From: Clostridia bacterium
GTDB taxonomy: Bacteria > Bacillota > Clostridia > Oscillospirales > RGIG8002
Length of the DNA stretch: 64,000 nt
Assembly (NCBI GenBank): GCA_017616855.1
Contig: JAFZXI010000115.1
Span: 1,412 to 65,411, forward strand
Direction: 5' to 3'
A program made the position numbers and the translations under genes. This document shows, piece after piece, positions 24,921 to 63,754 of this stretch. Below the pieces are notes generated by a model. That model searched no databases. It saw only the letters and a list, made by a program, of their open reading frames with translations, and had not been told where the DNA came from. The stretch's first letter is position 1; each line of letters starts with the position of its first letter.

Positions 24921-24921
24921 A

Positions 24922-40700: not shown

Positions 40701-43328
40701 TCAGAGGGCTTCCGCGAGCCCGACCGCGACGCGAAGTATCGCGAGTGCGTCGGAAACGGTCACGCTCCCGTCGCCGTCGGCGTCGCCGAGGCGGAGCGCG
40801 TCGGGCGTTTCTTCCGCAAGCTTAGCCGCGATGCGCAGCGCCGCGAGCGCGTCGGATACCGTTATCTCACCGTCGCGGTCGAGGTCGCCCTTCGTGCCGA
40901 GCGCGGCGACGAGCGCGTCGTATTGTTCCTTGGCGGCGGCGAGCTTTTCGTAGGAGGTGATGAATCTCGTCTTCATCGTGTCGGATTCCCTGCCGCAGAT
41001 CTCGAGCAGGTCGGCGATCTCTTCTCCGTTATCAAGCGTTATCTCATCGGGGAGCGCGTCGATGCGCGCGTTGAGCTTGGTATAGAAGGATGTGCGAACT
41101 ATGTTCATGCCGTCCGACTGCGCGCTGCCGAGCGGATAGCAGGTGTATTCGCTTATGCGCTTGACGGTTCCGTCCGCTTCCCTTGCCCAGCCCTTAAGCT
41201 GCAGGCGGCCGTTTTCGATCTCAACGGTGCTGAACGTCGGCAGTTCCGGCTGGCAGGTCAGCGCAAAAGAGATAAGTCCGGTAAATCTCGACGGATCCGG
41301 ATCATGATATTTGCTTCCGGTAAGCGAGCCGCAGTTCGTATACGTCGTGCCGACAGGGTCTATTGTGTAGACCGTACGGACGCCGTTCTTGACGTCTATG
41401 ACCGAGCCGGAGTTTTCCGCCACGCGCGAGCCGCCCTTCATCGTATTCGTGCGAATCCAGACGTGATCGTGTCCCTGGAAGAATATGTCGACGCCGTATC
41501 TGTCGAGAATCGGGACGATAAGCGAGCGAAGCTCCTTCGTTTCAGAGTCGTACGTGTGCACCGGGAAGGAATACATTCCCTGATGTGATACGACGATCTT
41601 AAAATCCTTATCGGTGCTCGCGAGGTCCTGTTCGAGCCACGCGAGCTGCTTGTCGCGGAGCGAGCGGAAGTTCACCTTAAGGTAGTCGGGCTGGTATTCA
41701 TCGAGCCCGTCGTTCGCGGCGGCGATGTTGCCGTTGATGACGGTGAAGTGCACGTTGCCGTAGTCAAACGAATAGAAGAACCCGTGGTCGTATTCGCCGA
41801 GCGGATCAACGTAGTTATGCTTTCGCACCCAATAGGGATAATTGAAAGATGAGTTCCACGAATCGTAGCGGAAATCGTGGTTGCCCATCGTGGACGCGAG
41901 GGTCTGCGAGCGGAAGATATCCGATCCGCTCTGATAATACCAGTTCCAGCAGCGTTCACTCATCGCGGCGTCGGTTTCGTCGCCGGTGCAGACGAAGAAC
42001 TCCGCGCCGGTAAGGCGTACCGCCTCGTTCCACGAATACGTCATTTCCCTGTATCTTTCGCCGTAGGCGACGACGATGTCCTCCCACTGCGTCGCGCCGG
42101 ACGCTTCGGGCTGCGGGTCGCCGCCGATGAAAAAGGCGAACTTGCTGTCGCCGTCGTCGGTGCGCAGGTAGCACGGAGGCGACCAGACGTCGTCGCCGTT
42201 GCCGTAGCGATACCAGTATTCGCGCCCCGCCTCAAGGCCGTCGACCGTTACGTAATGGTAGTATTTCTTCCATTCCTCCGGGCCGGTGAGCGATCCCTTG
42301 AAGTCGTCGTAAAACTCCACGGTTCCGGTGTAGACGGCCGCAGCGGAGAAATCCTGTTCAATCGGACCGTACGGAATCACCTGAACGACCGAAGGCATAT
42401 CTTCGACCGTCGTCCAGAACATATTCCTGCAGGTGCCGGCGTTTCCGTTAAAATTGACGTTGAAGTGCCAGAGACAATCGGGGTGGGTATCAACGTTATG
42501 ATCTATGAAATAGATCGGAAGCGATCTCGCGACGCCGTATTCGTTGACGGCTTCGGCGCAGAACGCCTCGTCCTCGGCAAAGCTGCTTGCTTTATAGTTC
42601 AGCGAGCAGTTACCGGAGGATGTTTTTGTCTTCGTTGCGCCGTACTGGATATCCTTGTCGATATACGCCGCGGATGCGGTGTGGAGGTATATCCACTTAT
42701 CGGACGCTCCCTCGGGGAACGTTATACGGTAGCGGACCCTGCCGTTCTGCGCGTACTTCTGCGCGTCGACGGTGTAAGTCAGCGTGATCGTGCTGTTATG
42801 CTGTGTGTCGCGGGAGGTTTCGAAGTAGGCGTCCGTCGCCGGATCGTATACCTGCATTATCAGCGTCGCGTTCGCGTCCTTTGTGTGTCCCTCGAAGCCG
42901 AAAACGATATCTTTATCAACGCCGGCAACGTCGACTTCGAACGCCTGGTACGGCAGCGCGTCGCCGTCAGACGTCCAGGTCAGATAATAACCGTCGTCGG
43001 TGGCGTTTCCCATAGAGGTTTCGCGTTCGCTCTTTTTGCCTTGCGGCACGCCGCCGCCCGTCGTTGACTCAAAAGCGTAGACCGGCAGCTTTGTAGCGGA
43101 GTAGAAACTTACGGCGGTGGAAACGCCCTTTTGCGTGCCTATGTACGCTTGAATCATAACGCTGCCGGAGGACGTCAGAATGCATTTTGTGTTGCCGACA
43201 GTCGGGCCGGCGCCGTCAAGCGGAGCCGCGTCAGCCGTTACGGCAAGGCGCTGTATTACTCCGACTCCGAGCAGCATTATCAGGCATATCGCCAGCGATA
43301 TTACTCTCGCAGCAATCCTGTTTTTCAC
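40701..43328 (-). CDS. secreted calcineurin-like metallophosphoesterase with C-terminal dockerin
   Basis: 875 aa, signal peptide RVISLAICLIMLLGVGVI. Metallophosphoesterase motifs FFIGGDPQ, CTGDETD, MGNHD, VVSHQGMYS, FQGHDHVW. C-terminus GDLDRDGEITVSDALAALRIAAKL...GDADGDGSVTVSDALAILRVAVGL. Confidence 0.85.
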   Translation of the reverse strand: MKNRIAARVISLAICLIMLLGVGVIQRLAVTADAAPLDGAGPTVGNTKCILTSSGSVMIQAYIGTQKGVSTAVSFYSATKLPVYAFESTTGGGVPQGKKSERETSMGNATDDGYYLTWTSDGDALPYQAFEVDVAGVDKDIVFGFEGHTKDANATLIMQVYDPATDAYFETSRDTQHNSTITLTYTVDAQKYAQNGRVRYRITFPEGASDKWIYLHTASAAYIDKDIQYGATKTKTSSGNCSLNYKASSFAEDEAFCAEAVNEYGVARSLPIYFIDHNVDTHPDCLWHFNVNFNGNAGTCRNMFWTTVEDMPSVVQVIPYGPIEQDFSAAAVYTGTVEFYDDFKGSLTGPEEWKKYYHYVTVDGLEAGREYWYRYGNGDDVWSPPCYLRTDDGDSKFAFFIGGDPQPEASGATQWEDIVVAYGERYREMTYSWNEAVRLTGAEFFVCTGDETDAAMSERCWNWYYQSGSDIFRSQTLASTMGNHDFRYDSWNSSFNYPYWVRKHNYVDPLGEYDHGFFYSFDYGNVHFTVINGNIAAANDGLDEYQPDYLKVNFRSLRDKQLAWLEQDLASTDKDFKIVVSHQGMYSFPVHTYDSETKELRSLIVPILDRYGVDIFFQGHDHVWIRTNTMKGGSRVAENSGSVIDVKNGVRTVYTIDPVGTTYTNCGSLTGSKYHDPDPSRFTGLISFALTCQPELPTFSTVEIENGRLQLKGWAREADGTVKRISEYTCYPLGSAQSDGMNIVRTSFYTKLNARIDALPDEITLDNGEEIADLLEICGRESDTMKTRFITSYEKLAAAKEQYDALVAALGTKGDLDRDGEITVSDALAALRIAAKLAEETPDALRLGDADGDGSVTVSDALAILRVAVGLAEAL

Positions 43329-43876: not shown

Positions 43877-43909
43877 AAAACGCACCTGATCGGTTAATCA
43901 GGTGCGTTT
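43877..43909 (-). terminator. rho-independent terminator after the glycyl-radical minigene
   Basis: Minus strand: AAACGCACCTGA-TTAACCG-ATCAGGTGCGTTTTG. Confidence 0.75.
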
Positions 43910-43920: not shown

Positions 43921-44079
43921 TTACGCAAGACTGTGCTTTACTCTGTCTTTTTCTTCAGCGCGTTTCGCGTTGTTGAAGCGGTCGGTGGTGCCGACGAGGT
44001 AACCGGTAATTCTGCGGATTCTCTCGAAGCCGACGCCTTCGCCTATTCCGGTATCGGTGGTGGTAATGCTCTTAGTCAT
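43921..44079 (-). CDS. stand-alone glycyl-radical module of class III RNR (52 aa, corresponds to the NrdD C-terminus)
   Basis: Own translation; below the ORF-track size cut-off. MTKSITTTDTGIGEGVGFERIRRITGYLVGTTDRFNNAKRAEEKDRVKHSLA. AGGAGGG lies 7 nt upstream of the ATG. The motif R-I-T-G-Y-L..G....FN.AK..E...RVKH matches the E. coli NrdD C-terminus RRVCGYLGSPDARPFNAGKQEEVKRRVKH (recalled). Confidence 0.75.
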   Translation of the reverse strand: MTKSITTTDTGIGEGVGFERIRRITGYLVGTTDRFNNAKRAEEKDRVKHSLA

Positions 44080-44118
44080 TTTTCTTTCCCTCCTGTGTGA
44101 AATGTGGTTTATGTTAGT

Positions 44119-46389
44119 TTATTTTACTCCGTAGAATCTGGGCATATTCGGGTACTTTTTGCGGAGCTCCGCGAGCTTCTCGTAACTGACCTCTTCGCCC
44201 TCGTGTCTGCCGCAGCGCGGGCAGGTGTCGCCGATGACGCCGGTGTAACCGCAGACGGGATCGCGGTCGACGGGGTGGTTGACGGAGCCGTAGCCGACGC
44301 CCTTCTCCTTCATGCAGCGGATGACGGACTCGAACGCGTCAAGGTTCTTGCAGGTGTCGCCGTCGAGCTCAACGTAGCTGATGTGTCCGGCGTTGGTCAG
44401 CGCGTGATACGGGGCCTCAAGGGATATCTTCTCGTATGCGCCGATGTTGTAGTAGACCGGAACGTGGAAGGAGTTGGTGTAATACTCTCTGTCGGTAATG
44501 CCGGGCAGCTTGCCGTACTTCTGGCGGTCGATGCGGACGAAACGGCCGCTGAGGCCCTCGGCGGGAGTGGCAAGCAGCGTGAAGTTCAGGCCCTCGGCCT
44601 TCGCCTTGTCATCGCACATCTTGCGCATGTGGCTGATGATCTCAAGACCGAGCTTCTGGCTCTCGGGGCTTTCGCCGTGGTGCTTGCCGGTCAGTGCGAC
44701 GAGCGTTTCGGCGAGTCCGATGAAGCCGACGCTGAGCGTGCCGTGCTTAAGCACTTCGGCGACGCTGTCGTCGTCGCTGAGCTTCTGCGAGTCGATCCAG
44801 ACGCCCTGCCCCATCAGGAAGGGGTAGTTACGCACCTTCTTGGTGCACTGGATGCCGAAGCGGTGGAGCAGCTGACGGAACACGAGCTCCATGCGCCTGT
44901 CGAGTATCGAATAGAACTTATCGATATTGCCTTCGGATTCGAGCGCGATCCTCGGCAGGTTGATCGAGGTAAAGCTGAGGTTGCCTCTGCCGCAGGTAAC
45001 CTGACGGCTCGGATCATAGACGTTCGCGATAACTCTCGTGCGGCAGCCCATATAAGCGACCTCGGTGTTGAAATCGCCGGGCTTGTAATACGCGAGGTTA
45101 AAGGGCGCGTCGATGAAGGAGAAGTTCGGGAAGAGGCGCTTGGCGGAGGTCTTCATCGCGAGCTTGAAGAGGTCGTAGTTGGGATCCTCTTTGTTATAGC
45201 TGATGCCTTCCTTGACCTTGAAGATCTGCACCGGGAAGATCGGGGTCTCGCCGTTGCCGAGACCGGCGTCGGTCGCGAGGAGCAGGTTTTTCATAACCAT
45301 GCGCGCTTCCGGCGAGGTGTCGGTGCCGTAGTTGATGGAACTGAACGGGACCTGCGCGCCGGCGCGGGAGTTCATCGTGTTGAGGTTGTGGATGAACGCT
45401 TCCATCGCCTGGTAGGTCGCGCGGTCGGTGTTCCTCATCGCGGTCTCGACGGACTTGCGGTGCGCCTTCTCGGCGTTCTCGCGCTTGAAGCCCTTCCCGA
45501 CGATGTATTCGACGACCTTCGCGCCGTATTCGTCGGTGTTGCCCATGCGGACGTCGTCGCCGAGCGCGGCTTTCAGCTCATCTACGAATTTGTCGGCGTC
45601 GGAGAGGTCGTCGCCGTCGGCATAGAAGTAGAATTGCTTAAGCGCCTTGAAATACTCTTTTTTGAAGGTCTTAGCGACGCCGGGCGCCATGCAGTAGTCG
45701 AAGTTCGGCACGCTCTGGCCGCCGTGCATCTCGTTCTGGTTCGCCTGGATCGCTATGCAGGCGAGCGCGGAGTAGCTGGAGATGCCGTTGGGCTCGCGCA
45801 GGTAGCCGTGGCCGGTGGAGAAACCGCCCTTGAAGAGCTCCAGCAGGTTGATCTGGCAGCAGGTCTCGGTCAGCATGTAGAAATCCTTGTCGTGAATGTG
45901 GATGTCGCCGTGGATGTGCGCCGCGGCGATGTCCTTCGGCAGGATATAGTTATCGACGAAGTATTTGCCGCCCTCGGAGCCGTATTTCAGCATCGTGCCC
46001 ATCGAGGTATCGGCGTCGATATTCGCGTTCTCGCGCTTGATATCGGCGTCCGCGGCGGAAGAGAAGGTCAGTTCCTTATATATATCCATCAGGTCGGACT
46101 CGGTCTGACGGATCTTCGCGTGCTCGGCGCGGTAAAGAATGTACGCCTTCGCGATCTTGGAGTAGCCGTGCTCGATAAGCTTCTCTTCGACGAGGTCCTG
46201 CACCTCCTCGACGGTGGGTATCCCCGTCGACGGGATTGCGAGGATTACCTTTTCGGTAAGGTTATCGAGCTCAACGTCGCTGAGCCCGTTGGGATCGGCG
46301 GCGTCCGCCGCCTTCTTTATCGCTTCTCTTATCTTCAGCGCGTCGAACGGGACGACGTCGCCGCTTCTCTTTCTGATTTTCCAGATCAT
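44119..46389 (-). CDS. nrdD: anaerobic ribonucleoside-triphosphate reductase NrdD, lacking the glycyl-radical C-terminus
   Basis: Likely start is the ATG at 46389 (ATP-cone MIWKIRKRSGDVVPFDALKIREAIKKA); the track ORF extends to 46524. Class III RNR core, C-terminal Zn-ribbon ...DPVCGYTGVIGDTCPRCG. Ends ...PRFYGVK* with no R..GY motif. Confidence 0.9.
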   Translation of the reverse strand: MIWKIRKRSGDVVPFDALKIREAIKKAADAADPNGLSDVELDNLTEKVILAIPSTGIPTVEEVQDLVEEKLIEHGYSKIAKAYILYRAEHAKIRQTESDLMDIYKELTFSSAADADIKRENANIDADTSMGTMLKYGSEGGKYFVDNYILPKDIAAAHIHGDIHIHDKDFYMLTETCCQINLLELFKGGFSTGHGYLREPNGISSYSALACIAIQANQNEMHGGQSVPNFDYCMAPGVAKTFKKEYFKALKQFYFYADGDDLSDADKFVDELKAALGDDVRMGNTDEYGAKVVEYIVGKGFKRENAEKAHRKSVETAMRNTDRATYQAMEAFIHNLNTMNSRAGAQVPFSSINYGTDTSPEARMVMKNLLLATDAGLGNGETPIFPVQIFKVKEGISYNKEDPNYDLFKLAMKTSAKRLFPNFSFIDAPFNLAYYKPGDFNTEVAYMGCRTRVIANVYDPSRQVTCGRGNLSFTSINLPRIALESEGNIDKFYSILDRRMELVFRQLLHRFGIQCTKKVRNYPFLMGQGVWIDSQKLSDDDSVAEVLKHGTLSVGFIGLAETLVALTGKHHGESPESQKLGLEIISHMRKMCDDKAKAEGLNFTLLATPAEGLSGRFVRIDRQKYGKLPGITDREYYTNSFHVPVYYNIGAYEKISLEAPYHALTNAGHISYVELDGDTCKNLDAFESVIRCMKEKGVGYGSVNHPVDRDPVCGYTGVIGDTCPRCGRHEGEEVSYEKLAELRKKYPNMPRFYGVK

Positions 46390-46541
46390 TGCCGGCACCC
46401 TTTCTTTTATAATATTGTATATAAAGCCATGGAATCGCTGTTTCGGGAACGGCGCGCGGGCAGACTTCTCCCCTCGCGGAACCGTTGTGCGTATTATACT
46501 ATCACCTTTTTTCGCCTTTGTCAAGTACTTTTTTCAAAAAA

Positions 46542-46557
46542 TCCACAATATCTTGTG
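46542..46557. promoter_or_regulatory. candidate NrdR box upstream of nrdD
   Basis: CCACAATATCTTGTGT is a palindrome close to the recalled NrdR consensus (ACACnATATnTnGTGT). It lies just upstream of a minus-strand TTGACA-17-TAGTAT promoter candidate (about 46495-46525). Confidence 0.35.
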
Positions 46558-46643
46558 TTTTGCCTCTGCATTTTCAACTAAATATGCTAATTGTTAAAGC
46601 TTTGTGATGTTGAAAAATTGTATACCGAAAGGGCAAAAAAGAG

Positions 46644-46754: not shown

Positions 46755-46831
46755 CCGCCCGTGGCACAGTTGGATAGCGCATCAGATTCCGATTCTGGAG
46801 GTCGGGGGTTCGAATCCCTTCGGGCGGACCA
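46755..46831 (+). tRNA. tRNA-Arg(CCG)
   Basis: Acceptor CCGCCCG/CGGGCGG, anticodon stem TCAGA/TCTGG with loop TTCCGAT, T-loop TTCGAAT, encoded CCA. Confidence 0.85.
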
Positions 46832-46912
46832 GGTGAGGTCAATGCGAACACGGTGCTGTTTTTCGGCGCCGAGGTGTTCGGGTTGATGGCTGTTTATGTA
46901 TGACAGCAAGAG

Positions 46913-46946
46913 AAAAAGGAGACGTGAAAGCGTCTCCTTTTTCTTT
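46913..46946 (+). terminator. rho-independent terminator after tRNA-Arg
   Basis: AAAAAGGAGACG-TGAAAG-CGTCTCCTTTTTCTTT. Confidence 0.75.
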
Positions 46947-47190
46947 AATGTCTTCACTGGGGCACGTCGGAGAGAGGTGCGCGAAGTCCTGTCGTATTGC
47001 ATTGTATTGCTTTTTCGCGGCGGGCTCTCCCCTGTTTCGATATTTCCCGCGAAAATCGCATATTCTTTTTTCATTTCGGGCCGGAAGGCCCTTTTTTCGT
47101 TTCCCGGAACAGATTTATTGCTTTTAGGGGAGAAAACGACGGCGCGCGGTGGTAAGATAAGCGCGTAAATGACAAAAGGAGCGAGGAACG

Positions 47191-47430
47191 ATGCCGAAGG
47201 TCCCCCACAAAATCGAAGAATGCGTCCATACGGACGATTTCTCGCGCTATAAGAGCGAGCACCGCGCGGAGCACGACAAGCTGAACGAGAAGGTCGAGAT
47301 GCAGAGCGAAAGAGTCGTCGGCGTCGAGGCGAAGCTGACGTCGCTGATCGCGGTGAACCGTCTCATACTTGGCGCGATCGTTACGGGGATAGTCTCGATC
47401 GTCGTTATCCTTCTGACGAGAGGTATATAA
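47191..47430 (+). CDS. XhlA-like phage membrane protein (lysis-associated)
   Basis: 79 aa: an N-terminal Cys/His region and coiled coil (EECVHTDDFSRYKSEHRAEHDKLNEKVEMQSERVVGVEAKL), then one C-terminal TM helix (LILGAIVTGIVSIVVILL). Architecture matches PBSX XhlA as recalled. Confidence 0.55.
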   Translation: MPKVPHKIEECVHTDDFSRYKSEHRAEHDKLNEKVEMQSERVVGVEAKLTSLIAVNRLILGAIVTGIVSIVVILLTRGI

Positions 47431-47432
47431 CA

Positions 47433-47591
47433 TGGATGAAGCAAGAGCGCGCGGAAAAGGCGTCGGGTTCGAAAGGATCCGCAGGATCACCGGCTATCTG
47501 GTCGGCGATCTGAAGCGCTTCAATAACGGGAAATACGCCGAACAGGCCGACAGAGTCAAGCATTCCGTAGGAGGCAGATATGGGATATGAT
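47433..47591 (+). CDS. phage-encoded stand-alone glycyl-radical module (52 aa, NrdD C-terminus-like)
   Basis: Own translation; below the ORF-track size cut-off. MDEARARGKGVGFERIRRITGYLVGDLKRFNNGKYAEQADRVKHSVGGRYGI. GAGAGG lies 8 nt upstream. 29 of 36 aligned residues are identical to the host minigene (43921..44079) by my count, with many synonymous differences. The 3' end overlaps the next ORF by 12 nt. Confidence 0.7.
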
Positions 47592-49055
47592 CCTTTGAGC
47601 GTCAAAGACGTTCACCAGAAATACGGCGGCAGCGGCTCCTTCGCCGACCGCGGTCAGACTTGGGTCGACCTCGGCCTCGGCGCCGCCGGCAGCTACATCG
47701 GAAGCGGAGATCAGAACAAAGCTCTCAGGTTGAAGATGGAGGAGGTCGGCGGGCTTACCCTTCCCGCAGCGACTCCCGCGGCAACGGAAACGGCGACTCC
47801 CGCCACGGCCGCCCCCTCTCCCGCTCCCGCGGCAACGGAAACGGCGACACCCGCCGCGGCCGCTCCGGTATATAACGATCCGGAGCTGGAGGCGGCGATC
47901 GCGAAGCTCCAGGGGACGGAATACAAACCTTCCGACGATGTGACGCAGCTCAAGCAGTCGGTCAACGACGCGATAAGCGAGTTCAAAAACTATCAATACG
48001 GCCTCGCTCAGGAGATCGAAGGGGCTCTGAAGAAGATCCTCGACCCGAAGACGTTCTCTTACGACCACGAAACGGACCCGAGCTACCACGCGCTCCGGGA
48101 TGAATACATCCGCAACGGGCGGATCGCCATGCTCGACACCGGCGCCGCGGCTGCCGCCGCGAACGGCGGGCGCGAGACGTCCTACGGACGCTCCGCCGCG
48201 CAGCAGGCGTATCAGGGATATATGAGCGAGCTCAATTCGAAGATACCCGAACTGGAAAACGCGGCGTATCAGCGCTACAGGGACGATCTGGACGACGCCT
48301 ATAAGCGCTATCAGCTCCTCGTTGAGGACAGGGAGCGCGAACGCGGCGAGAAAGTGGATGATCTGAAGCTCGCGCTCGAGCTTTACGAGAACGCCAGGGA
48401 CGACGAGCTGGAGGAATACGGTCTGACCCGCGACGAGCTGCTCGACACCATCAACGTCCTCGCGCAGCGCGAGAGCACCGGATACGAGCGCGGCAGAGAC
48501 GCCATAACCGACGAGCGATACGAGCGCGAATACGCCGACGAGAGAGCCGACACCGCCTATAACAAGCTCGCGACGCTGATCTCCTCCGCCGGCTACACTC
48601 CGACCGACGAAGATCTCGAAAAGGCGGGAATGAGCAAAGGGCAGGCCGACGCGCTGAAGGCGGCTTATGAGGTCGACGCGGCGAACGCGAAAAAGTCGTC
48701 TTCTTCCTCCGGATCCGGAACGAAGAAGAGCAGCAGCGGCTTCAAGAGTTCGACGGCGGACTCGGATCTCCGGAGTCTCAAGAAGAAGGGCGACACGAAG
48801 ACTGATGAGGGCTGCATGGCGATCGCTGAGGCGATGGCCGAATACTACCCCATCGATACCTACGGCGAGGACGTTATAGACTACTTCGCCAACACTTACG
48901 TCGGCGGTCACCCCATAGAATACTGGCTCAACCGCATCGACGAGCTGGAAGAGGAAAAGAATAACCCCGTCGCCACCGGCAAGACCTCCGGAATAAAGCC
49001 CGGACGTGCCGCGGGCGCCGGCGGGCTTACGGGCAACAAGGCAATGATAAATTAG
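47580..49055 (+). CDS. phage protein of unknown function (Pro/Thr/Ala linker plus long charged helical region)
   Basis: 491 aa with an internal duplicated linker (PAATPAATETATPATAAPSPAPAATETATPAAAAP). The E/R/D/Y-rich central region has no recognised catalytic motif. Confidence 0.7.
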   Translation: MGYDPLSVKDVHQKYGGSGSFADRGQTWVDLGLGAAGSYIGSGDQNKALRLKMEEVGGLTLPAATPAATETATPATAAPSPAPAATETATPAAAAPVYNDPELEAAIAKLQGTEYKPSDDVTQLKQSVNDAISEFKNYQYGLAQEIEGALKKILDPKTFSYDHETDPSYHALRDEYIRNGRIAMLDTGAAAAAANGGRETSYGRSAAQQAYQGYMSELNSKIPELENAAYQRYRDDLDDAYKRYQLLVEDRERERGEKVDDLKLALELYENARDDELEEYGLTRDELLDTINVLAQRESTGYERGRDAITDERYEREYADERADTAYNKLATLISSAGYTPTDEDLEKAGMSKGQADALKAAYEVDAANAKKSSSSSGSGTKKSSSGFKSSTADSDLRSLKKKGDTKTDEGCMAIAEAMAEYYPIDTYGEDVIDYFANTYVGGHPIEYWLNRIDELEEEKNNPVATGKTSGIKPGRAAGAGGLTGNKAMIN

Positions 49056-49067
49056 AAAGGGGCTTTT

Positions 49068-50396
49068 ATGGCACTGGTCGAATACCTTATCCGCCTGGAT
49101 CTGAAGAAGGAACACGAGCAGGGCGTGCAGCACGTCAAATACGGCGACACGAACTCGCGATACCTGCGCTTCCAGATCCACAGCGGAGGGAAAACCTACG
49201 ATATTTCGGATAAAAAGGCCGTTCTGCACTATAAGAAGTCGGACGGCACCGAAGGCAGCATTCGCTGCTTCCACCGCGCGGAGAAAGGCGTCTGCGAGTG
49301 CCTGGTCTCCTCTCAGATGACCGCCGTCGCCGGCGAGGTCAAGTGCGATCTGAAGATCTTTTCCGGCGACACGCTGCTCCACTCCCCGAAGTTTTATCTG
49401 CTGGTCGGAACCGACGCGCTCTCCGGAGACACCTCCGCGGACGATTTCGGCGACGAGAAGGCGGACAAGGTCGAGGACGCGGTCGAGGGCAACCTCGCCG
49501 CGCTCGACAGCGAAGGCAACCTGATCGACAGCGGCAAGGCCGTCGACGACTTCGCCGACGAAGAGCACACCCACACCTACGACGAGGTCATAGACTTCGC
49601 CTCCGGCGTCGTTTATTATACGCCCGCCGGCGGGGAGATCGTCTTCCCCATCGTCTATTGGGTAGACGATACGCCCCTCTCCACTCCCGACGAGGGCGAT
49701 TACTGGTATGCGCCGACGGCGATGAAGCTTTACAAGGCGGACAGCGTGCCGGGTTCCGGAATGACCTGGACCGACGTCACGAACACGAAGCTGAAAAACA
49801 ACAGTCTTTTCGTCCGTCATAACGGCAGAGTCTATTACTGCGTGGACGGCGAGCTGAGAGAGATAAAGACAACGCTCGTATCGCACACTCACGTGAAGAG
49901 CGATATAACGGATTTCGCTCACACGCACGCGAAATCGGACGTCACCGACTTCGCCCATACGCACACGGTAAGCGATATTACCGACTTCCCCGACACTCCC
50001 TCCGGCATCCCGGAGCCGACGAGCAACGACTTCGCGAAGAAGCTCTGCGTCACCAGTGACGGAAAATACCTTCTTTCGACCGGCGCCGTCTGCACGGTGA
50101 GCATTTCCTTCGCCTCCGGCGTCGGGAGCTCTCCGACCGCGATCTGGATAGAAAGTCCCTCGGGCATACGCTATTCCGACGAGGACGCTCCGGTCAGCTT
50201 TGACCTCATCGAGGGTGAAGTTGTGAAGTGCTACGTCAGCTATTCGCTTGACGATAACTATATCAAACTCAACGGAACGACCGTCGCCGGAGACGGCGGC
50301 AGCTCCGCCTATTACGAGCTGACCGTCGAGGACGACGCGAGCATCTACGTCACCGGAAGCGGCGGCAGTTTCGGGCTCATCAGTATAACCATGTAA
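49068..50396 (+). CDS. phage tail-fibre / baseplate protein (BppU-N-like N-terminus, HTH..SDITDFA repeats)
   Basis: The N-terminus ...VKYGDTNSRYLRFQIHSGGKTYDISDKKAVLHYKKSDGTEG...LVSSQMTAVAGEVKCDLKIF...SPKFYLLV resembles the BppU_N pattern (QGD.nsr.l.f.l..nG...dl........KpDG). Three tandem 12-aa His-rich repeats at nt 49884..49991. Confidence 0.55.
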   Translation: MALVEYLIRLDLKKEHEQGVQHVKYGDTNSRYLRFQIHSGGKTYDISDKKAVLHYKKSDGTEGSIRCFHRAEKGVCECLVSSQMTAVAGEVKCDLKIFSGDTLLHSPKFYLLVGTDALSGDTSADDFGDEKADKVEDAVEGNLAALDSEGNLIDSGKAVDDFADEEHTHTYDEVIDFASGVVYYTPAGGEIVFPIVYWVDDTPLSTPDEGDYWYAPTAMKLYKADSVPGSGMTWTDVTNTKLKNNSLFVRHNGRVYYCVDGELREIKTTLVSHTHVKSDITDFAHTHAKSDVTDFAHTHTVSDITDFPDTPSGIPEPTSNDFAKKLCVTSDGKYLLSTGAVCTVSISFASGVGSSPTAIWIESPSGIRYSDEDAPVSFDLIEGEVVKCYVSYSLDDNYIKLNGTTVAGDGGSSAYYELTVEDDASIYVTGSGGSFGLISITM

Positions 50397-50408
50397 CAGG
50401 AGGCAACT

Positions 50409-50636
50409 ATGGCAACGGAAAAACTCATACCCATCGTAACCGATATCACGGTCCCCGAGGGCGCAACGCTCACTTACAGGTTCGGCAACTACTGCGAGTT
50501 CGCCGGAGAGTCCTCGGCCACGAAATCGGATATCAAAGGCGCTTCGCTCAACTCTTCCTTCTGGGAGCAGGACACCGGCGACTTCTATCACCTCACCGCT
50601 TCCGGCTGGGAGAAGAACGGACCCGAGGAGGAGTAA
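50409..50636 (+). CDS. hypothetical phage protein
   Basis: 75 aa with AGGAGG upstream. No recognised family. Confidence 0.55.
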   Translation: MATEKLIPIVTDITVPEGATLTYRFGNYCEFAGESSATKSDIKGASLNSSFWEQDTGDFYHLTASGWEKNGPEEE

Positions 50637-50645
50637 CATCCCGAT

Positions 50646-51047
50646 ATGCACGATCCCTCGATGAAACAGCAGGCGAAAGCGCTTGTTGTCAACAGAGGCC
50701 TATCCGTCGCCGCGGCTGCCCGCGAACTGGGCCTGCCGCGGCGTACTATTGCGGACTGGTCGAAGGCCGACGGCTGGCTTGAGCGGCGCGTCGAGCTTCG
50801 CCGCGACGTTTTTAATACGGAGACCACCGAGATCGAAGAGGGTATCGGCGACAACGCGGACGTCAGAGCTACCGCGAAGCGCGTGCTTAAAGGGATAAAC
50901 GTCTGGCTCGGCGCGTCGAAGGTCGTCTTGCCGAAGGAGGCCTCCGCGCTCGCCTCCGCCCTGGTCTCGCTCGCCGCGCTCGCGCCTTCGGACGCGGAAA
51001 AGACGCTCTCGGGCGTTATTTTCATTCCGGAGGTGAACGATGAGTAA
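50646..51047 (+). CDS. terminase small subunit (HTH type)
   Basis: 133 aa. The N-terminal HTH (QQAKALVVNRGLSVAAAARELGLPRRTIADWSKADGW) is typical of gpP-like / Terminase_5 small subunits. The 3' end overlaps the terL start by 8 nt. Confidence 0.7.
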   Translation: MHDPSMKQQAKALVVNRGLSVAAAARELGLPRRTIADWSKADGWLERRVELRRDVFNTETTEIEEGIGDNADVRATAKRVLKGINVWLGASKVVLPKEASALASALVSLAALAPSDAEKTLSGVIFIPEVNDE

Positions 51048-52446
51048 CGTCGTCTGGCGCCCGCAGCCCCGACAGGAGGAGTTTATGCGGCGTCCGGAAT
51101 ACGAGGCGCTCTACGGCGGAGCGGCCGGCGGAGGAAAAAGCGAAGCCCTCGTCATAGAGGCGCTGCGGCAGGTCAATATCCCCCACTATAAGGGACTGAT
51201 CCTGCGCAAAAGCTATCCACAGCTTTCCGAACTGATCGACAAAAGTATCCTATATTACCCGCGCGCGTATCCGGGAGCGAAATACAACGCCTCGACGCAC
51301 ACCTGGACCTTCCCTTCCGGCGCGAGGATCATTTTCGGATCGATGAACCGGAAGGAAGACAAGATCAAATACCAGGGCAAGAGCTTCGACTACATCGCCT
51401 TCGACGAGCTGACGCATTTCACCTGGGAGGAATATTCCTATATGTTCTCCCGAAACAGATCTTCCGGCCCCGGGGTTCGATCCTACATAAGAGCAACGGC
51501 GAACCCGGGCGGCGTCGGACACGGCTGGGTGAAGGACCGCTTCATCATCCCCGCTCCCCCGATGACGACGATCGCGGACACAGTGAAGTATTCCACCCCT
51601 TCCGGGGAGACGGAGGAGGCGTCGCGGACGAGGGTCTTTGTGCCGGCGACGGTCTATGACAATCAGATCCTCTTAAAGAACGATCCGGAATACGTCGCCA
51701 CCCTTGCCCTGCTTCCTCCCGCGGAGAGGCAGGCGCTGCTTTACGGCGACTGGGACTCCTTCTCGGGTCAGGTCTTCAGCGAATGGCGCAACGATCCCGC
51801 CGGGTATCTGACGCGGAAGTTCTCTCACGTCATTGAGCCCTTCGAGTTCCCCTCCTGGTGGAGAGTGGTGCGCGGGTTCGACTACGGTTATTCGAAGCCG
51901 TTTTCGGTCGGGTGGTATGCGGTATCCCCCGACGACGTTATCTACCGCGTCGCGGAGCTCTACGGCGGAGACGCGGACGTCGGCGTGAAATGGACTCCGG
52001 ACCGTATCGCCGAGGAGATAGCCGAGATAGAAAAAACTCACCCGCTGCTGCGCGACGTCAAGGTCGTGCTCGGGCTGGCGGATCCGGCGATTTTTTCCGC
52101 GACGGTTTACGGCGAAAGCATAGCCGAGCTGCTCGCGCGCAAGGGTGTTTATTTTTCCAAGGGAGACAATACGCGCCTCGCCGGTAAGATGCAGCTGCAC
52201 AACCGCCTCGCCTTCGACGAAGAGGGCCGGGCGAAGTTTTACGTTTTCAACACCTGCCGCAACTTTATACGCACGATCCCCTCTCTGGTCTATTCGACGG
52301 TCAACGTCGAGGACGTAGACACGACACAGGAGGATCACGCTTACGACGAATGCCGCTACGTGCTGATGGCGCACCCGATGACGACGGTGCCGAGGGTCAA
52401 GAGGCGCTGGAGGGTCCCGGAGCTCGATATCGACGAGGAATACTGA
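51040..52446 (+). CDS. terminase large subunit
   Basis: 468 aa with Walker A YGGAAGGGKSEAL, Walker B FDYIAFDELTHF, a coupling motif TANPGG, and a C-terminal nuclease region with acidic residues (DYGYS..., ...QEDHAYDECRY). Confidence 0.9.
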   Translation: MSNVVWRPQPRQEEFMRRPEYEALYGGAAGGGKSEALVIEALRQVNIPHYKGLILRKSYPQLSELIDKSILYYPRAYPGAKYNASTHTWTFPSGARIIFGSMNRKEDKIKYQGKSFDYIAFDELTHFTWEEYSYMFSRNRSSGPGVRSYIRATANPGGVGHGWVKDRFIIPAPPMTTIADTVKYSTPSGETEEASRTRVFVPATVYDNQILLKNDPEYVATLALLPPAERQALLYGDWDSFSGQVFSEWRNDPAGYLTRKFSHVIEPFEFPSWWRVVRGFDYGYSKPFSVGWYAVSPDDVIYRVAELYGGDADVGVKWTPDRIAEEIAEIEKTHPLLRDVKVVLGLADPAIFSATVYGESIAELLARKGVYFSKGDNTRLAGKMQLHNRLAFDEEGRAKFYVFNTCRNFIRTIPSLVYSTVNVEDVDTTQEDHAYDECRYVLMAHPMTTVPRVKRRWRVPELDIDEEY

Positions 52447-52724
52447 TTTTCGGGCGGTTAGGCGAACCGTTCGGAGTTTCCGAACCGTTCACGTTTTCTC
52501 CGCTTCTTCCCCTGCATAAGCGGTCGCGATACAAATCAGAACGTGCGATTTCCCGAGATTTCGGGCAATTTCGCGGCAAAAACGCTGCTTCTGAGGCGAT
52601 AACAGAGGAGCGAACGTATATTTCATGCTTTGAAAAAAACTGAACGACCGCCTTTTTCGGTCCCGCGGCGGTTCCCTGCAAACGGGCCCACGCGCCCGCG
52701 CGATTTACTATTACGGAGGACATT

Positions 52725-55700
52725 ATGGGCAAATACGCAGATCTTTACGCGAAGTTCGGCCGCGATATCAACAGCGACGCGGAAAAGAATAAGGAGACAA
52801 CGCAGGAGAAGCCCGCGGCGAAGACTTCGCGCGGGAAGTATTCCGATCTTTACGCGAAGTTCGGCCGCGACCTCGGCGGCCGTCGCACGAAGGCAGCGCA
52901 GGAGGAAGCGCAGCAGAAGGTCGAGGAGAAGAACGACGCGCTGCGCAACGCCCAGTCGAATTACCGCAGGCAGTATCTCATCAACGAGGCGACCAAGCGC
53001 GAGAACGAGAAGGAAGCGGAGGCGGAGCAGCGCCGGAGCAGGCGCTTCGCCAACGTCGCCGCCGCGAGGGCATATACCGATACCGCCAGCAGCGAGCGTT
53101 CTTACGAGGACCGCGTGAAGGCCGCGGAGGTCGAGAGGATCCAGGCGGAGAACAGGATCAGAGCCAGAAGCTCCGACGGACAGGAAGCGCAGCGCGACGA
53201 CGAGGCGCGTTACAACTATATCGCCCGCAGGATCGATACGCAGGAGAAAGCGAAAAAGGTCGAGGAGGCGCCCGGCGCCGGAAAGCTCACTGCCGAGCAG
53301 CTGAAGGAAGAGAGTGCGATCGGCGGCGTCACCAAAGGCGACCTGGCGTGGTATAAGGAAGAAAAGGCGCGGAGAGACGAGGCAGCGGCGCAGAAGAAGG
53401 CGGCGGAGGAGTATTTCGAGTCGCTCAAAACCTATTACAACAACCTGACGCTCGACCTCGACGCGGCGAAGGCGGAATACGACCGCGTCGCCGGGATAAA
53501 GCGCTTGCTTGATAACGCCGGCAGCGAGCTGGAGAAGATGAAGACGGAAAACCCGCAGCTCTGGAATGAGATCGACGGGATAGCGCAGTTTCTCTACGGC
53601 GGCCCGAAAGCAAAGCAATACGGCGAGGGCAAGATGGTGGACGACGGTCCCGACGCGGATTACTTCGGCGACAACGATGATATCGCGAGGCAGCACGCCT
53701 ACACCCGCTATATTCTCAGGCAATACGGCTACAAGGACTACGACGCGCTCGCGAAGGAGGTCGCCGAGAAGGGCAACACCTGGGCGACGGCGCGGGATAT
53801 TCAGGAGAGCTACAAGCTTGTGACGGACGCGAAGGCGGATCCTGAGTTCGAGGCGTGGGCGGCGAAAGGGGCCGCGGATAAGGATAACTCGGTAATGTGG
53901 GCGCGTGGTTTGACGGACGAAGAAGCCGAAAGCACCAAATCCACAATGGGCGTCGGCACCTCCGGACTTCGCGAAGACGTCATAAAGAGGCGTATGCTCA
54001 CGCAGGACGAGCTCGACATATACAATTATTACTACGGCAAGGGCGACAAGGACGCGGCTTACAAATACTATAATTCACTCGACGATCTGCTCGCCCAAAG
54101 GTCCGCCGTGTATAACGCGAAGGTGTTCGGAGACAGCTTCTTCGGCAAGGCAAATATGGCAATATACACCGGGTTCGAGCAGTTTGCAAACGGCGTATAT
54201 CGCAAGATCGGGCCGAAGCAGGAATACTACTACCCGACCGTCAGCCAGTATACATCCGCTATACTCACGCAGGATATGGGCGGGGTCGAGAAGTTCTGGT
54301 ATGATCTCGGCGTCAACGTCTCGAATATGGCGCCTTCCATTATCGCCGGTAAGCTCGCGAGCTATATCAATCCCGTCTTCGGCGAGCTCGTCGGCGCGGC
54401 GACGATGGGGCTTTCCGCTTCCGGCAACGCATACGCCGAAGCGATCAACTCCGGCATGACGCCCAACCAGGCGAGCGCGTATTCCAATCTGATAGGTCTT
54501 TCCGAGACTACGCTGCAGGCGGCTATCGGCGGTATTCCCTACGTCGGCGGCGCAGTGACCGGCGGAGTTTTCACGAAGGCCGGAACGAAGGTGCTGCGCT
54601 TCGCCGGCGGGCTCAACTCCGGCATGGCGAAGGTCGCGACGAAGGCCCTCGGCTACGGGCTGAAATACGTCGGCAAATCCTTCGGAGAGTTCGTCGAAGA
54701 GGGTTTGCAGGAGGTGCTGGAGCCGTATTTCGCGGCGTTCGTCACGGGCGAGGCGCCGGACGACGTCGACTGGGACGCGGTATTCTACAGCGCCGGTATG
54801 GGCTTCATCACTTCCCTCCTGCTGAATGCCGGCGACAGCGCGGTCAACGTGAAGAACGCGCGCAGCAAGGCGAAGGATGTTATAAATCAAGGCGGCGCCG
54901 AGCTCGCCGTCAGGCTCGGGCTGCAGTTTGACGAGAAGAGCGACGTCTACCGCATCGCGAAGGAGATACAGCGCGACGGATACGACACCGGCAACATCGC
55001 CGAGCTGCTGATGGCGCTCGAGACGGAAACGCAGAACGATCCCGACTTCGCGCAGCGGTTCACGGACCGCGACTTCGGCGAGCTTAATATCAAGCCGAAG
55101 AACGAGACGAAGACCATAGATAAGAACGCGAAGAAGATCGGCAAATACGTCGAAAAGCAGGACGCGACGGAAGGCGCCGCTTACGAGGCGGCTACGCAGA
55201 CGCCGATAAGCGAGAGCGTCGCCGGGCAGGACGTCCGGGGCGAAGAGGTCTCTCCCGTCAGAACGGCGGAGGAGTTCGTTTCGCGCTATAACGGAGAGGT
55301 TGCGGAAAACGCAACAACTGAAGCGCGTCCGGACACGAACGCGGTCGATGAGGGCGCCGCGCGCACCTCCGGGACGAACGTGAATACGGCGGCGGAGACA
55401 AACGCGCCGACGGTCGCGAACGTTCCCGCGGAGACGGTCCCTTCCGATAACGAAAACGTTATCACGGTCAAGCGGGCGAAGGTTTCGGACGCTTCGAAGG
55501 CGGTCAGCCGCATAACGAAGAACGGCAAAGCGATCGAGGGCGGCGGACGGTATTACGTTTACGATACCGCCGGCACTACCGCGATACGCTACGATGACGC
55601 GCCGGCGAACGTGAGCTTCACGAGCGAAGACGGGCTCGCCGGAAGGATAGACCGGGTGCTCAACACCGAGGGAGACGATACGGGCGTCGTTTTCGATACC

Positions 55701-60875: not shown

Positions 60876-60889
60876 AAACAGAACGCAGA

Positions 60890-60917
60890 AAAAAGCACCC
60901 GCGAGGGTGTTTTTTTC
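60890..60917 (+). terminator. terminator after the giant ORF
   Basis: AAAAAAGCACCC-GCGA-GGGTGTTTTTTT. Confidence 0.65.
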
Positions 60918-61018
60918 ATTATAGGGGAGAAATGGAAGGCGACGGCGGTTTATAATCTTGACGACACGCCGGAAAGACGGCAGATAAGACGCGCGGGAGA
61001 GACCGCAGGGAGTTATTT

Positions 61019-61903
61019 ATGCTCGATTTTGATTATTTCGACCTTCAGCGCTTCTCGGACGGTGAGGTCGAAGGCGACGCCGGCCAAACGGGCGAGGCCG
61101 CCGCAGAACCTGCAGGCGAGCCGACAGCACAGACCGTTCCGGATCTCGATGCGGAGTTCGACGAGCTCGTCAAGGGAAAGTATAAGGACGCTTATAAGTC
61201 CCGCGCCGAAGCTTTCGTCGGAAAGAGACTCCGCAAAGCGAACGCCGAGCTGGAGCAGCTGCGCACGGAAACGGCGCAGTATAAAAAGTATGCTCAGCTC
61301 GTAAGAGAACGCTATCCGGACGCCGCGGACGACGCCGCGGCTTTTGAGGCATTCGACAACGACGCCCGTCTGCTCGCGGACGAGGCGGACAGAAACGGTT
61401 ATCCCGTCGATCTATGGAAGGAAAAACGCTCCATAGAGCGCGAAAAACGCGAGATCGCGGAGGAAAAGCGCGCAAAAAGCGACGCCGACGCGCGTTCCCG
61501 CAAAATGGACGACTGGATCGAACAGAGCGAGCGCCTCAAACAGAAATACCCGGGATTTGACCTCAGAGCGGAGCTTTCGGACCCCGAAACGCAGGCCGAC
61601 TTCTTCGATCTAATCGAGAAAAAGGGCCTGACGATCGAGCAGGCATACCGCCAGGTGCGCTTTGACAAGCTCATAGAGGACGCGAGGATAAACGCCGCCC
61701 TCGAAAGTGAGAAGCAGACCGTCGAGAGGATAAAATCCGGGACTGAAAGACCGAGAGAGAATGGCTCCGCGGCGACGCCCGCCGGAAAGGCGATCGTTGA
61801 CGTCACACACGCGGACAAGGAAACGCTGGCGAAGATAGACCGCGCCCTCCGCAGACACGGAAGGTTCGATCCGATGAACCCGCCGGCGGATTTCGACTAT
61901 TGA
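61019..61903 (+). CDS. phage scaffolding protein
   Basis: 294 aa, highly charged and helical, immediately upstream of the capsid gene. N-terminus MLDFDYFDLQRFSDGE is of the ..LQ.FA type seen on Firmicute phage scaffold proteins. Confidence 0.75.
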   Translation: MLDFDYFDLQRFSDGEVEGDAGQTGEAAAEPAGEPTAQTVPDLDAEFDELVKGKYKDAYKSRAEAFVGKRLRKANAELEQLRTETAQYKKYAQLVRERYPDAADDAAAFEAFDNDARLLADEADRNGYPVDLWKEKRSIEREKREIAEEKRAKSDADARSRKMDDWIEQSERLKQKYPGFDLRAELSDPETQADFFDLIEKKGLTIEQAYRQVRFDKLIEDARINAALESEKQTVERIKSGTERPRENGSAATPAGKAIVDVTHADKETLAKIDRALRRHGRFDPMNPPADFDY

Positions 61904-61932
61904 TATCAAATCTTCAGAAAGGAAAAAACACC

Positions 61933-63186: not shown

Positions 63187-63193
63187 CGCACAT

Positions 63194-63223
63194 AAAGCGG
63201 GGGCGGAAGCCCGCCCCCGCTTT
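63194..63223 (+). terminator. terminator after the capsid gene
   Basis: AAAGCGGGGGCGG-AAGC-CCGCCCCCGCTTT, a perfect 10+ bp GC stem. Only a weak T-tract follows (GGCTTTTTC). Confidence 0.6.
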
Positions 63224-63480: not shown

Positions 63481-63503
63481 GGAAGGCATGAAAGGAAAAT
63501 GAT

Positions 63504-63692: not shown

Positions 63693-63754
63693 CGAGAACA
63701 TAATCCGGAGGGGTTTTCCCTTCGTTTTATAATACTTCAAAGGAGTAATTATCC

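Follow-up and report, generated by a model that had tools for sequence, protein, structure and literature searches.

Glycyl-radical enzymes are defined by a radical glycine carried on the C-terminus of the catalytic chain. In the canonical single-chain class III ribonucleotide reductase (RNR), NrdD, which works with the activase NrdG and is found in E. coli, phage T4 and Prevotella copri (8P23), an ATP-cone, a catalytic barrel with a finger-loop Cys and M-x-C motif, a zinc ribbon, the RxxGY glycyl-radical loop and a C-terminal tail are all part of one polypeptide. The only known exception among glycyl-radical enzymes is the autonomous spare-part protein for pyruvate formate-lyase, namely GrcA/YfiD of E. 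coli, with the phage T4 version Y06I (vs.6). A 2026 review states that such proteins are known only for formate lyases, and lists their existence for other glycyl-radical enzymes as an open question (PMC13450708).

Divided RNRs have been described in other settings. The class II enzyme NrdJa/NrdJb of Pseudomonas aeruginosa and Thermus phage phiYS40 is split into two consecutive genes near the C-terminal zinc-finger region, and both pieces are needed. However, this enzyme is B12-dependent, NrdJb is a large folded domain, and no protein radical sits on the small piece. The nrdA-a/nrdA-b genes of Aeromonas phage Aeh1, and phage nrd genes interrupted by introns, inteins or homing endonucleases, are also encoded in separate pieces that still give an active enzyme, but these breaks are sporadic and caused by mobile elements (PMC3653736). 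In class I RNR, the stable radical is held on a different polypeptide from the active site; it is a tyrosyl or metal-centred radical in a ferritin-like protein and travels by long-range proton-coupled electron transfer.

Here, we analysed a 64,000-nucleotide stretch of a gut or rumen Clostridia genome (GCA_017616855.1, contig JAFZXI010000115.1), hereafter the window. The class III RNR in this window is encoded as a large catalytic protein and a separate 52-residue protein carrying the radical glycine motif. The original prediction had proposed a genuinely two-piece enzyme, based on the ribosome-binding site of the small gene and a stand-alone phage paralogue, while noting that a nonsense mutation, a sequencing error or read-through could also explain the layout. 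The sequence-level statements were confirmed and both supporting arguments hold. What had not been seen was how widespread the layout is, that nrdG normally follows the minigene, that the tail of the large subunit looks like a vestigial glycine-loop lead-in, and that orphan phage minigenes are common.

Organisation of the nrdD locus

The nrdD gene (44119-46389, minus strand) runs from the ATG at 46389 to K756, with the stop TAA at 44121-44119. Profile searches were performed to assign its domains. The large ORF matched PRK07111 positions 1-714 of 746 (1053.7 bits, cut-off 764) and PF13597 positions 1-531 of 562 (E 2.4e-187). The ATP-cone (PF03477, E 4.7e-21) was located at 46117-46380 on the minus strand, corresponding to residues 4-91 of the 756-aa protein (residues 49-136 of the 801-aa ORF). 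The fold matched P. copri NrdD 8P2C at E 5e-45, and the best Foldseek hits were the P. copri, S. thermophilus and T4 NrdD; identity to P. copri NrdD was 39-43%. The finger loop was identified as YMGCRTR at 446-452. M447, G448 and R450 are invariant, C449 is conserved in at least 90% of 99 sequences, and C177/C178 are invariant. On the basis of established NrdD1 knowledge, the M-x-C motif is of the formate-dependent type.

The putative zinc ribbon (44212-44262, minus strand) has the form D710-x2-C713 ... C723-x2-C726. Alignment to 8P23 residues 660-708 (NRCLDCGY...CPKCG against DRDPVCGY...CPRCG) showed three Cys, together with an Asp at the position where P. copri NrdD has the first Cys, which refines the original description of a Cys ribbon. 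D710, C713, C723 and C726 are invariant in our alignment (A4), and the Asp is shared by fused and split members of the clade. The protein stops 30 residues after the last zinc-ribbon cysteine and has no glycyl-radical motif, leaving PRK07111 positions 715-746 unmatched.

The stop codon is followed by a 39-nt spacer (44080-44118) of 13 in-frame sense codons, TNINHISHRRERK, which holds the Shine-Dalgarno (SD) sequence AGGAGGG at 44094-44088, 8 nt before the ATG at 44079. The minigene (43921-44079, minus strand; stop TAA at 43923-43921) encodes 52 residues that match PRK07111 positions 711-744 of 746, so that the profile match is divided cleanly between the two ORFs. Only PF13597 was hit, with no hit to the PFL-type Gly_radical family (PF01228) to which GrcA belongs. 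The codon for the putative radical Gly26 lies at 44002-44004, within FERIRRITGYLVG. Residues 18-49 align to residues 707-738 of P. copri NrdD 8P23, which comprise the Gly loop and C-terminal tail.

A terminator hairpin at 43877-43909 (minus strand) follows the minigene. It folds at -24.8 kcal/mol, with z = -6.5 against shuffles, and was missed by a simple terminator scan because its T-run is only UUUUG. Upstream of nrdD, a consensus scan identified a promoter-like site at 46496-46524 (minus strand; TTGACA-17-TAGTAT, with TG; 10 of 12 positions), which is a pattern match only. A search for an NrdR box gave one weak match at 46543-46558, which 12 of 100 shuffles also produced. Rfam showed no intron, riboswitch or other RNA family near nrdD, and no nrdG or other CxxxCxxC activase ORF was found within the 64-kb window.

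Conservation of the split arrangement

Comparison with related loci was performed to establish whether the layout is specific to this genome. The same layout was observed in 70 of 78 interpretable related species, including the isolates Coprococcus catus, Desulfovibrio piger ATCC 29098, Anaerovibrio slackiae, Lawsonibacter and Hominiventricola. Across 64 split loci, the minigene falls in relative frames 0/1/2 = 19/25/20, the gaps range from -44 to +224 nt, the stops are TAA 39, TGA 17 and TAG 8, and an SD is kept in 63. In the closest relative (L001, 96% aa identity), the minigene lies 35 nt downstream in a different frame. An ORF with the GCPHxCxGCHN motif of nrdG lies directly downstream of the minigene in 70 of 80 related loci. 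In phage contigs L097 and L155, the minigene lies upstream of the truncated nrdD, and in a further case (L128) the two genes are separated.

None of the 120 best NrdD relatives in a 5.8-billion-protein database has a Gly motif. At least 150 distinct 50%-identity clusters of stand-alone 53-196-aa homologues exist, and 7,992 of the 8,000 candidates scored in the clustered protein search matched the minigene at E <= 0.001. The exact 756-aa and 52-aa proteins occur in several independent assemblies, the latter on 24 contigs, and all 21 members of the NrdD 90% cluster are 756 aa long. The stop codon is therefore not a read error.

Selection was examined at the codon level. Across 8 species pairs, the 32 Gly-loop codons showed 75 synonymous and 2 non-synonymous differences, which indicates near-absolute purifying selection. 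The core of the large subunit gave dN/dS values of 0.02-0.07.

The C-terminal tail of the large subunit

The large subunit ends in a conserved tail (44122-44199, minus strand; G731-K756, GEEVSYEKLAELRKKYPNMPRFYGVK). In alignments made with MAFFT, the 52-aa homologues were smeared across the whole length, and in a mixed set the fused Gly loops were aligned to the split tails. This misalignment prompted a test of tail homology. The profile-profile score against the minigene lead-in was 27.4, compared with a column-shuffle null of 12.2 +/- 2.5 (z = 6.1), and 0 of 2000 shuffles reached it. The tail lies at the same distance from the last zinc Cys, within 1 residue, as FERIRRITG in fused enzymes, and its dN/dS is 0-0.12. 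It is thus probably a vestigial glycine-loop lead-in, with Lys where the Gly would be. The similarity was not significant for the Selenomonadaceae-type tails (z = -0.2), and the vestige argument holds only for the type found in this window.

The prophage-borne paralogue

A temperate phage is integrated at tRNA-Arg(CCG) (46755-46831, plus strand), which was identified with ARAGORN and Rfam. The 3' end of the tRNA (GGCGGACCA, about 46823-46831) is the attachment junction: synteny with L001 stops at 46832, and homology to the related phage contig L164 begins at the shared core GGCGGACCA. The left end of the prophage occupies 46832-64000 (plus strand) and continues beyond the window. PHROG and Pfam hits showed an XhlA-like gene (47191-47430), a 491-aa ORF (47580-49055), a BppU-like tail protein (49068-50396), the large terminase (51040-52446), a 2716-aa LPD38 protein (52725-60875) and the major head protein (61900-63186). 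No nrdD or nrdG was found in the visible 17 kb.

The second 52-aa copy is located at 47432-47590 (plus strand), rather than at 47433 as originally given, and matches the same PRK07111 positions, 711-744. Its Gly21 codon lies at 47492-47494, and it is translationally coupled to its neighbours. The exact protein is present in L164, next to an S24 repressor and a serine recombinase. It is about 76% identical at the nucleotide level to host-type minigenes (L001 minigene region), so it is not a recent copy. About 70 of 80 viral contigs carry such orphan minigenes with no nrdD or nrdG within about 6 kb, whereas some phages carry complete split or fused nrdD-nrdG sets. A tblastn search of the paralogue against cultured or annotated phage records gave only 5 unannotated human faecal contigs.

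A two-polypeptide class III RNR

The results are best explained by an obligate two-polypeptide class III RNR, and we hold this reading with high confidence, although accumulation of the 52-aa product, assembly in trans, activation by NrdG and catalysis are inferred from sequence, and a second, full-length NrdD elsewhere in the genome cannot be excluded. nrdD and the minigene are probably co-transcribed, from the promoter-like site near 46500 to the hairpin at 43877-43909, and translated independently. The 756-aa subunit supplies the ATP-cone, the substrate barrel with Cys449 and the zinc ribbon, while the 52-aa subunit supplies Gly26 and the C-terminal tail, which follow the zinc ribbon in single-chain NrdD. 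The small subunit is expected to insert its Gly loop into the barrel of the large subunit. NrdG, presumably encoded elsewhere in this genome, is expected to convert it to the glycyl radical, which would then generate the catalytic thiyl radical as in canonical NrdD. The prophage copy would feed the same slot in the host enzyme. The zinc ribbon is thought to support radical generation and stays on the other chain; activation may therefore need the assembled complex. Structure prediction gave no support either way, as the AlphaFold model of the large subunit alone (pLDDT 72, with a low-confidence finger loop) and that of a natural fused homologue used as a control (pLDDT 62, glycyl-radical domain below 50) were both too weak to interpret.

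A broken single-chain nrdD, whether by nonsense mutation, sequencing or assembly error, or pseudogenisation, draws support only from the fact that in this genome alone the minigene is in frame with nrdD and the 13 intervening codons have no stop. The same feature would permit a single fused chain made by programmed read-through, frameshifting, or RNA or protein splicing, and phage nrd genes are known to be interrupted by introns, inteins and homing endonucleases (PMC3653736). The comparative data refute the first reading and leave the second very unlikely. The stop position is shared by independent assemblies, the split is conserved in about 70 species with different stops, frames and spacers, and both parts are under strong purifying selection. 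Relative to fused enzymes there is a roughly 50-residue insertion (tail, spacer and minigene N-terminus), not a point change. The random relative frame, the overlaps of down to -44 nt, the conserved SD and ATG, and the permuted gene order in L097 and L155 argue against a fused product. No group I or II intron was hit in the window, and the spacers are too short for an intron or split intein.

It is also unlikely that the minigene product serves as a GrcA-like spare part or regulator for another, full-length NrdD, with the truncated protein having a different role or none, although only 64 kb of the genome is visible and orphan minigenes exist in phages. The truncated NrdD keeps all catalytic and allosteric elements under strong purifying selection, it sits in an nrdD-minigene-nrdG operon in 70 of 80 relatives, and no genome contributed two loci among the 80 best hits. 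Moreover, a glycyl-radical barrel with no glycine has no known way to work. A role of the phage-borne copy as a decoy or inhibitor, competing for NrdG or for the slot in the host large subunit to modulate or shut down host dNTP synthesis, is doubtful. The phage protein does differ from the host subunit at about 7 of 34 core positions (VGDLKRFNNGKYAEQAD against VGTTDRFNNAKRAEEKD). However, the motif FERIRRITGYLVG is intact in it and in the 80 viral homologues, which is partly ascertainment because the search patterns included RRITGYLV, and phages generally gain from more dNTPs.

Comparison with described systems and possible origin

The locus resembles the GrcA system in that a small stand-alone protein carries the radical glycine motif and a phage-encoded version exists. 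It differs in that GrcA backs up a full-length enzyme that has its own glycine, whereas the partner of the host copy has no glycine at all, so the small protein would be obligatory rather than a spare. Compared with canonical NrdD, the glycyl-radical loop and C-terminal tail form a separate gene product, the catalytic chain ends in a conserved Gly-less tail, and nrdG is not linked in this window. Compared with the Aeh1 type of split, no mobile element is present, and the break point is fixed and conserved across bacterial orders. Compared with class I RNR, the radical would be a backbone glycyl radical placed directly in the barrel. No published description of a split NrdD or of an NrdD-type stand-alone glycyl-radical protein was found in full-text searches, which covered few subscription-journal papers, and the layout is apparently undescribed.

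We infer that the arrangement likely arose by duplication of the 3' end of a single-chain nrdD, followed by decay of the resident loop, of which the tail of the large subunit is the vestige. A tentative hypothesis for its advantage is that, as oxygen cleaves a glycyl-radical protein at the glycine, only a cheap 52-residue cartridge is lost in the split layout and the 756-aa subunit can be recharged, which would be a built-in version of the GrcA/YfiD principle. This remains an argument from design. It is likewise possible, though somewhat less likely than not, that the 52-aa proteins represent the first exchangeable radical cartridge or spare-part system for a glycyl-radical enzyme other than pyruvate formate-lyase. 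In this reading, the class III RNR of many gut and rumen anaerobes would have become dependent on such a subunit, and temperate phages would carry orphan cartridges as auxiliary genes that plug into the host's catalytic subunit to sustain or restore dNTP synthesis, for example, after oxygen exposure or during phage replication.

If confirmed, the arrangement would provide a natural two-component system for studying glycyl-radical installation, domain insertion and oxygen damage in trans. It would further suggest how strict anaerobes might recover DNA synthesis cheaply after oxygen exposure, and identify a widespread, unrecognised class of phage auxiliary genes. The bacteria in which the essential anaerobic RNR appears to hold its radical on a separate protein include abundant gut and rumen members of the Lachnospiraceae, Oscillospiraceae and Selenomonadaceae, as well as Desulfovibrio piger. 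The finding, if confirmed, also bears on the annotation of nrdD, as the small gene is named inconsistently and sometimes called hypothetical, and the large one looks truncated.

Organisation of the nrdD locus

On the minus strand, an ORF runs from ATG 46389 to TAA 44121-44119 and encodes 756 aa. An upstream TTG at 46524 would give a protein of 801 aa; however, the ATP-cone match starts at residue 49 of that version. The ORF matched the Pfam ATP-cone and NRDD domains, and also the NCBIfam equivalog PRK07111 at 1053.7 bits (cut-off 764), but only over model positions 1-714 of 746. The ORF is followed by a 39-nt spacer, which holds AGGAGGG 8 nt before the next start codon, and then by a 52-codon ORF (44079-43921) encoding MTKSITTTDTGIGEGVGFERIRRITGYLVGTTDRFNNAKRAEEKDRVKHSLA. 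This small ORF, referred to here as the minigene, matched positions 711-744 of the same model. Its residues 18-49 aligned to residues 707-738 of the solved Prevotella copri NrdD, which are the radical-glycine loop and C-terminal tail. As noted in the original prediction, the spacer is in frame and free of stops. A strong hairpin (-24.8 kcal/mol, z = -6.5) follows the minigene, and then a comEA-like gene. A second 52-aa copy was located at 47432-47590 on the plus strand.

A single sequence, CCACAATATCTTGTGT, at 46543-46558 (+) matched the NrdR-box consensus with 2 mismatches and lies just upstream of the nrdD promoter-like site. It was the only such match in the window, although 12 of 100 shuffles also gave one.

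Comparison of the layout across assemblies and species

The original prediction interpreted this layout as a two-piece enzyme, with the caveat that a nonsense mutation, a sequencing error or read-through might also account for it. To distinguish between these, the occurrence of the two proteins in other assemblies was examined. The exact 756-aa and 52-aa proteins are on record from several independent assemblies, two NCBI MAGs carry consecutive accessions for them, and all 21 members of the NrdD 90% identity cluster are 756 aa long. Three further assemblies (L162, L163 and L165) showed the identical gene layout. One public assembly of the same locus (L161, 7285-7384, corresponding to window 44816-44870) has an insertion of about 100 nt with a 55-nt duplicated stretch inside nrdD, as a result of which gene callers split nrdD there and call a spurious 572-aa antisense ORF. 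This is probably a misassembly or a strain variant.

A scan of one genome per species with the NrdD protein returned 80 loci at 68-96% identity. Scripted classification showed that 70 of these loci are split, with the downstream minigene visible in 69 of them, while eight are fused, with the Gly 19 residues after the last zinc Cys, and two are cut by contig ends. In the 64 split loci analysed in detail, the nrdD stop codon was TAA in 39, TGA in 17 and TAG in eight, and the relative frame of the minigene (0/1/2) was distributed as 19/25/20. The gap between the two genes ranged from -44 nt, with overlapping genes in Coprococcus, to 224 nt. A Shine-Dalgarno sequence was present 4-12 nt before the start in 63 of 64 loci, 61 of 64 minigenes start with ATG, and the median length was 52 aa. 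In Coprococcus intestinihominis and C. catus (loci L027 and L031), where the minigene start overlaps nrdD by 44 nt, the large subunit has a longer tail of 51 residues after the zinc ribbon, ending in ECGCSSK. In the nearest relative (locus L001, 96% aa identity) the gap is 35 nt and the frames differ; the in-frame spacer of this window is therefore a coincidence. The split-type genomes include the cultured isolates Coprococcus catus, C. intestinihominis, Hominiventricola, Lawsonibacter, Anaerovibrio slackiae and Desulfovibrio piger ATCC 29098.

In phage contigs, the two genes were also found in permuted or separated order. In phage contigs L097 (5914-8362; the same contig as L167, 4787-7235) and L155 (5965-8692), the minigene lies directly upstream of a Gly-less nrdD, while in L128 (2069-6120) it lies 1.7 kb downstream. 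In L155 the large gene is itself broken into two ORFs (6121-6630 and 6944-8692). No read-through, frameshift or splicing scheme can join pieces arranged in this way. The results thus confirmed the observation made in the original prediction and supported its interpretation.

Conservation of both genes

Nei-Gojobori estimates were computed for eight species pairs. The omega values were 0.02-0.07 for the core and 0-0.12 for the tail of the large subunit, while the 32 Gly-loop codons of the minigene showed a total of 75 synonymous against 2 non-synonymous differences. Both pieces are functional genes. Catalytic residues were conserved in 99 split-type large subunits, where C177, C178, M447, G448 and R450 are invariant and C449 is nearly so. 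The predicted fold matched class III RNR structures, the best match being 8P2C at E 5e-45. The first zinc-ligand position of the zinc ribbon (D710, 44260-44262) is an invariant Asp (HPVDRDPVCGY) where P. copri NrdD has Cys (NRCLDCGY). This was seen in both fused and split members of the whole clade among the 80 loci, giving a 3-Cys-plus-Asp site.

In 70 of the 80 related loci, an ORF with the activase motif GCPHxCxGCHN follows the minigene, giving an nrdD-minigene-nrdG operon. This window is an exception, as a terminator follows the minigene and no CxxxCxxC activase is encoded within the 64 kb.

Distribution in sequence databases

None of the 120 best-scoring relatives of the large subunit, among 5.8 billion protein clusters, has a Gly motif. 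The minigene protein matched 7,992 of the 8,000 candidates scored at E <= 0.001, the 120 best of which are 49-87 aa. In a library of 50%-identity representatives it gave 2,085 hits at E <= 1e-3 and 651 at E <= 1e-10, and the best 150 are all 53-196 aa. No dedicated family was found in Pfam, NCBIfam (June 2026) or PHROGs; the small proteins only hit the C-terminal end of full-length NrdD models, below the NCBIfam curated cut-offs. In the NCBI annotation, the host copy is called 'ribonucleoside-triphosphate reductase' and the phage copy 'hypothetical protein'. A 439-aa protein (P0371) is grouped at 90% identity with the 52-aa phage paralogue; this longer protein may be a fusion with the downstream gene or a gene-calling artefact.

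Two architectures and a probable origin of the split

The analysis revealed two architectures. Type A, the type in this window, occurs in Oscillospiraceae, Lachnospiraceae and other Clostridia, in Desulfovibrio, and in some phages. It is characterised by a conserved large-subunit tail, GE-x-V/I-S-x-E-K-L-x-E-L-R-K-K-Y-P-x-x-P, and a minigene of about 52 aa with a variable N-terminus. Type B occurs in Selenomonadaceae and Anaerovibrio (9 loci, monophyletic in a rough NJ tree), and has a different basic tail and a 94-104-aa small subunit with an extra N-terminal domain of about 55 aa (for example MVVNGINVTISGINDMSEQEVVAYIDMLQ...) that matched no Pfam family. In L057, L059, L068, L069, L071, L075, L078 and L080, the gene for this second class of small subunit lies directly downstream of nrdD. 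Similar long forms were identified in phage contigs L112 (5854-6117), L146 (5866-6180) and L159 (140-403), and the class as a whole spans 87-104 aa.

When fused and split proteins were aligned together, MAFFT placed the type A tail opposite the Gly loop of fused enzymes. This was then tested directly by a profile-profile comparison of the tail (consensus GEAVSVEKLRELRKKYP) with the minigene lead-in (consensus GEGVGFERIRRITGYLV). The score was 27.4 against a column-shuffle null of 12.2 +/- 2.5 (z = 6.1), and none of 2000 shuffles reached it. The tail also starts at the same distance from the last zinc Cys as the genuine lead-in of fused enzymes, within one residue (V+10 EKLRELRKK+19 against F+11 ERIRRITG+19). 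The simplest reading, which remains an inference, is that the 3' end of a single-chain nrdD was duplicated and the downstream copy became the minigene, while the resident copy lost the glycine (now Lys) and everything after it but has been kept under selection for some new role. The same test on type B tails was not significant (z = -0.2).

Proposed mechanism and relation to known systems

The two separate, conserved and independently translated genes encode products that together make up a complete NrdD, and they are usually in an operon with nrdG. By homology to solved NrdD and from established glycyl-radical chemistry, we infer that the small protein inserts its Gly loop into the barrel beside Cys449, with its C-terminal segment on the surface as in P. 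copri NrdD, that NrdG makes the radical at Gly26, and that catalysis then proceeds as in formate-dependent NrdD. Structure prediction was uninformative, but the genomic evidence supports a real and widespread two-subunit form of class III RNR whose assembly is inferred. Given that oxygen cleaves glycyl-radical proteins at the glycine, we hypothesise that the split confines the damage to a 52-residue chain that is cheap to replace, and that the phage copies would supply the same slot.

The closest analogue in logic is GrcA/YfiD of E. coli, with its T4 homologue Y06I (vs.6). Those proteins are PFL-type and back up an enzyme that keeps its own glycine. Formate lyases have been described as the only glycyl-radical enzymes with spare-part proteins, and whether others exist as 'yet to be determined' (PMC13450708). 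Full-text literature searches, which did not cover all published work, found no description of the present arrangement. Split RNRs are known in three other forms, namely class II (NrdJa/NrdJb), phage Aeh1 NrdA, and phage nrd genes broken by introns, inteins or homing endonucleases. None of these puts the radical residue on a mini-protein.

The phage-borne copy

Synteny with L001 ends exactly at the 3' end of tRNA-Arg(CCG) at 46832. From there, the window carries phage genes encoding a weak XhlA-like 79-aa protein, the 52-aa paralogue (47432-47590), a BppU-type tail protein, the large terminase, a 2716-aa protein with an LPD38 domain (large polyvalent protein type; 52725-60875, +) and the major head protein, the LPD38 protein lying between the terminase and head genes. 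The exact paralogue also occurs in a related phage contig (L164), where it sits two genes after an S24 repressor and a large serine recombinase. Homology between that contig and the window begins at the shared core GGCGGACCA, which is the tRNA 3' end. The paralogue is therefore a true phage gene, lying second from the attachment site. It is translationally coupled to its neighbours and is about 76% identical to host-type minigenes at nucleotide level (L001 minigene region). In L164 (6250-7794, compared with window 46820-46903), the shared att core lies inside the 3' end of the serine recombinase gene, and integration may therefore alter the C-terminus of the recombinase.

Of the 80 best viral contigs that encode a relative, retrieved with search patterns that included the radical motif itself, six carry it fused in a full-length phage NrdD and three carry it beside a Gly-less nrdD. 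About 71 carry it as a small stand-alone ORF with no nrdD and no nrdG-type activase within about 6 kb on each side. The neighbouring genes in those contigs were very diverse (200 clusters among 283 neighbours) and, judged by their sequence features alone, include lysozyme-like proteins, holin- or XhlA-like proteins and integrases. This is the usual place for accessory cargo.

Other features of the window

Two convergent copies of the Gut-1 RNA motif (RF01706; 51.9 and 52.1 bits, cut-off 50) were identified at 24919-24989 (+) and 25015-25092 (-), just after a cluster of five tRNA genes at 24343-24883. An 875-aa secreted metallophosphatase with a purple-acid-phosphatase N-terminal domain is encoded at 40701-43328 (-) and carries a C-terminal type I dockerin, which suggests a cellulosome-associated lifestyle for the host.
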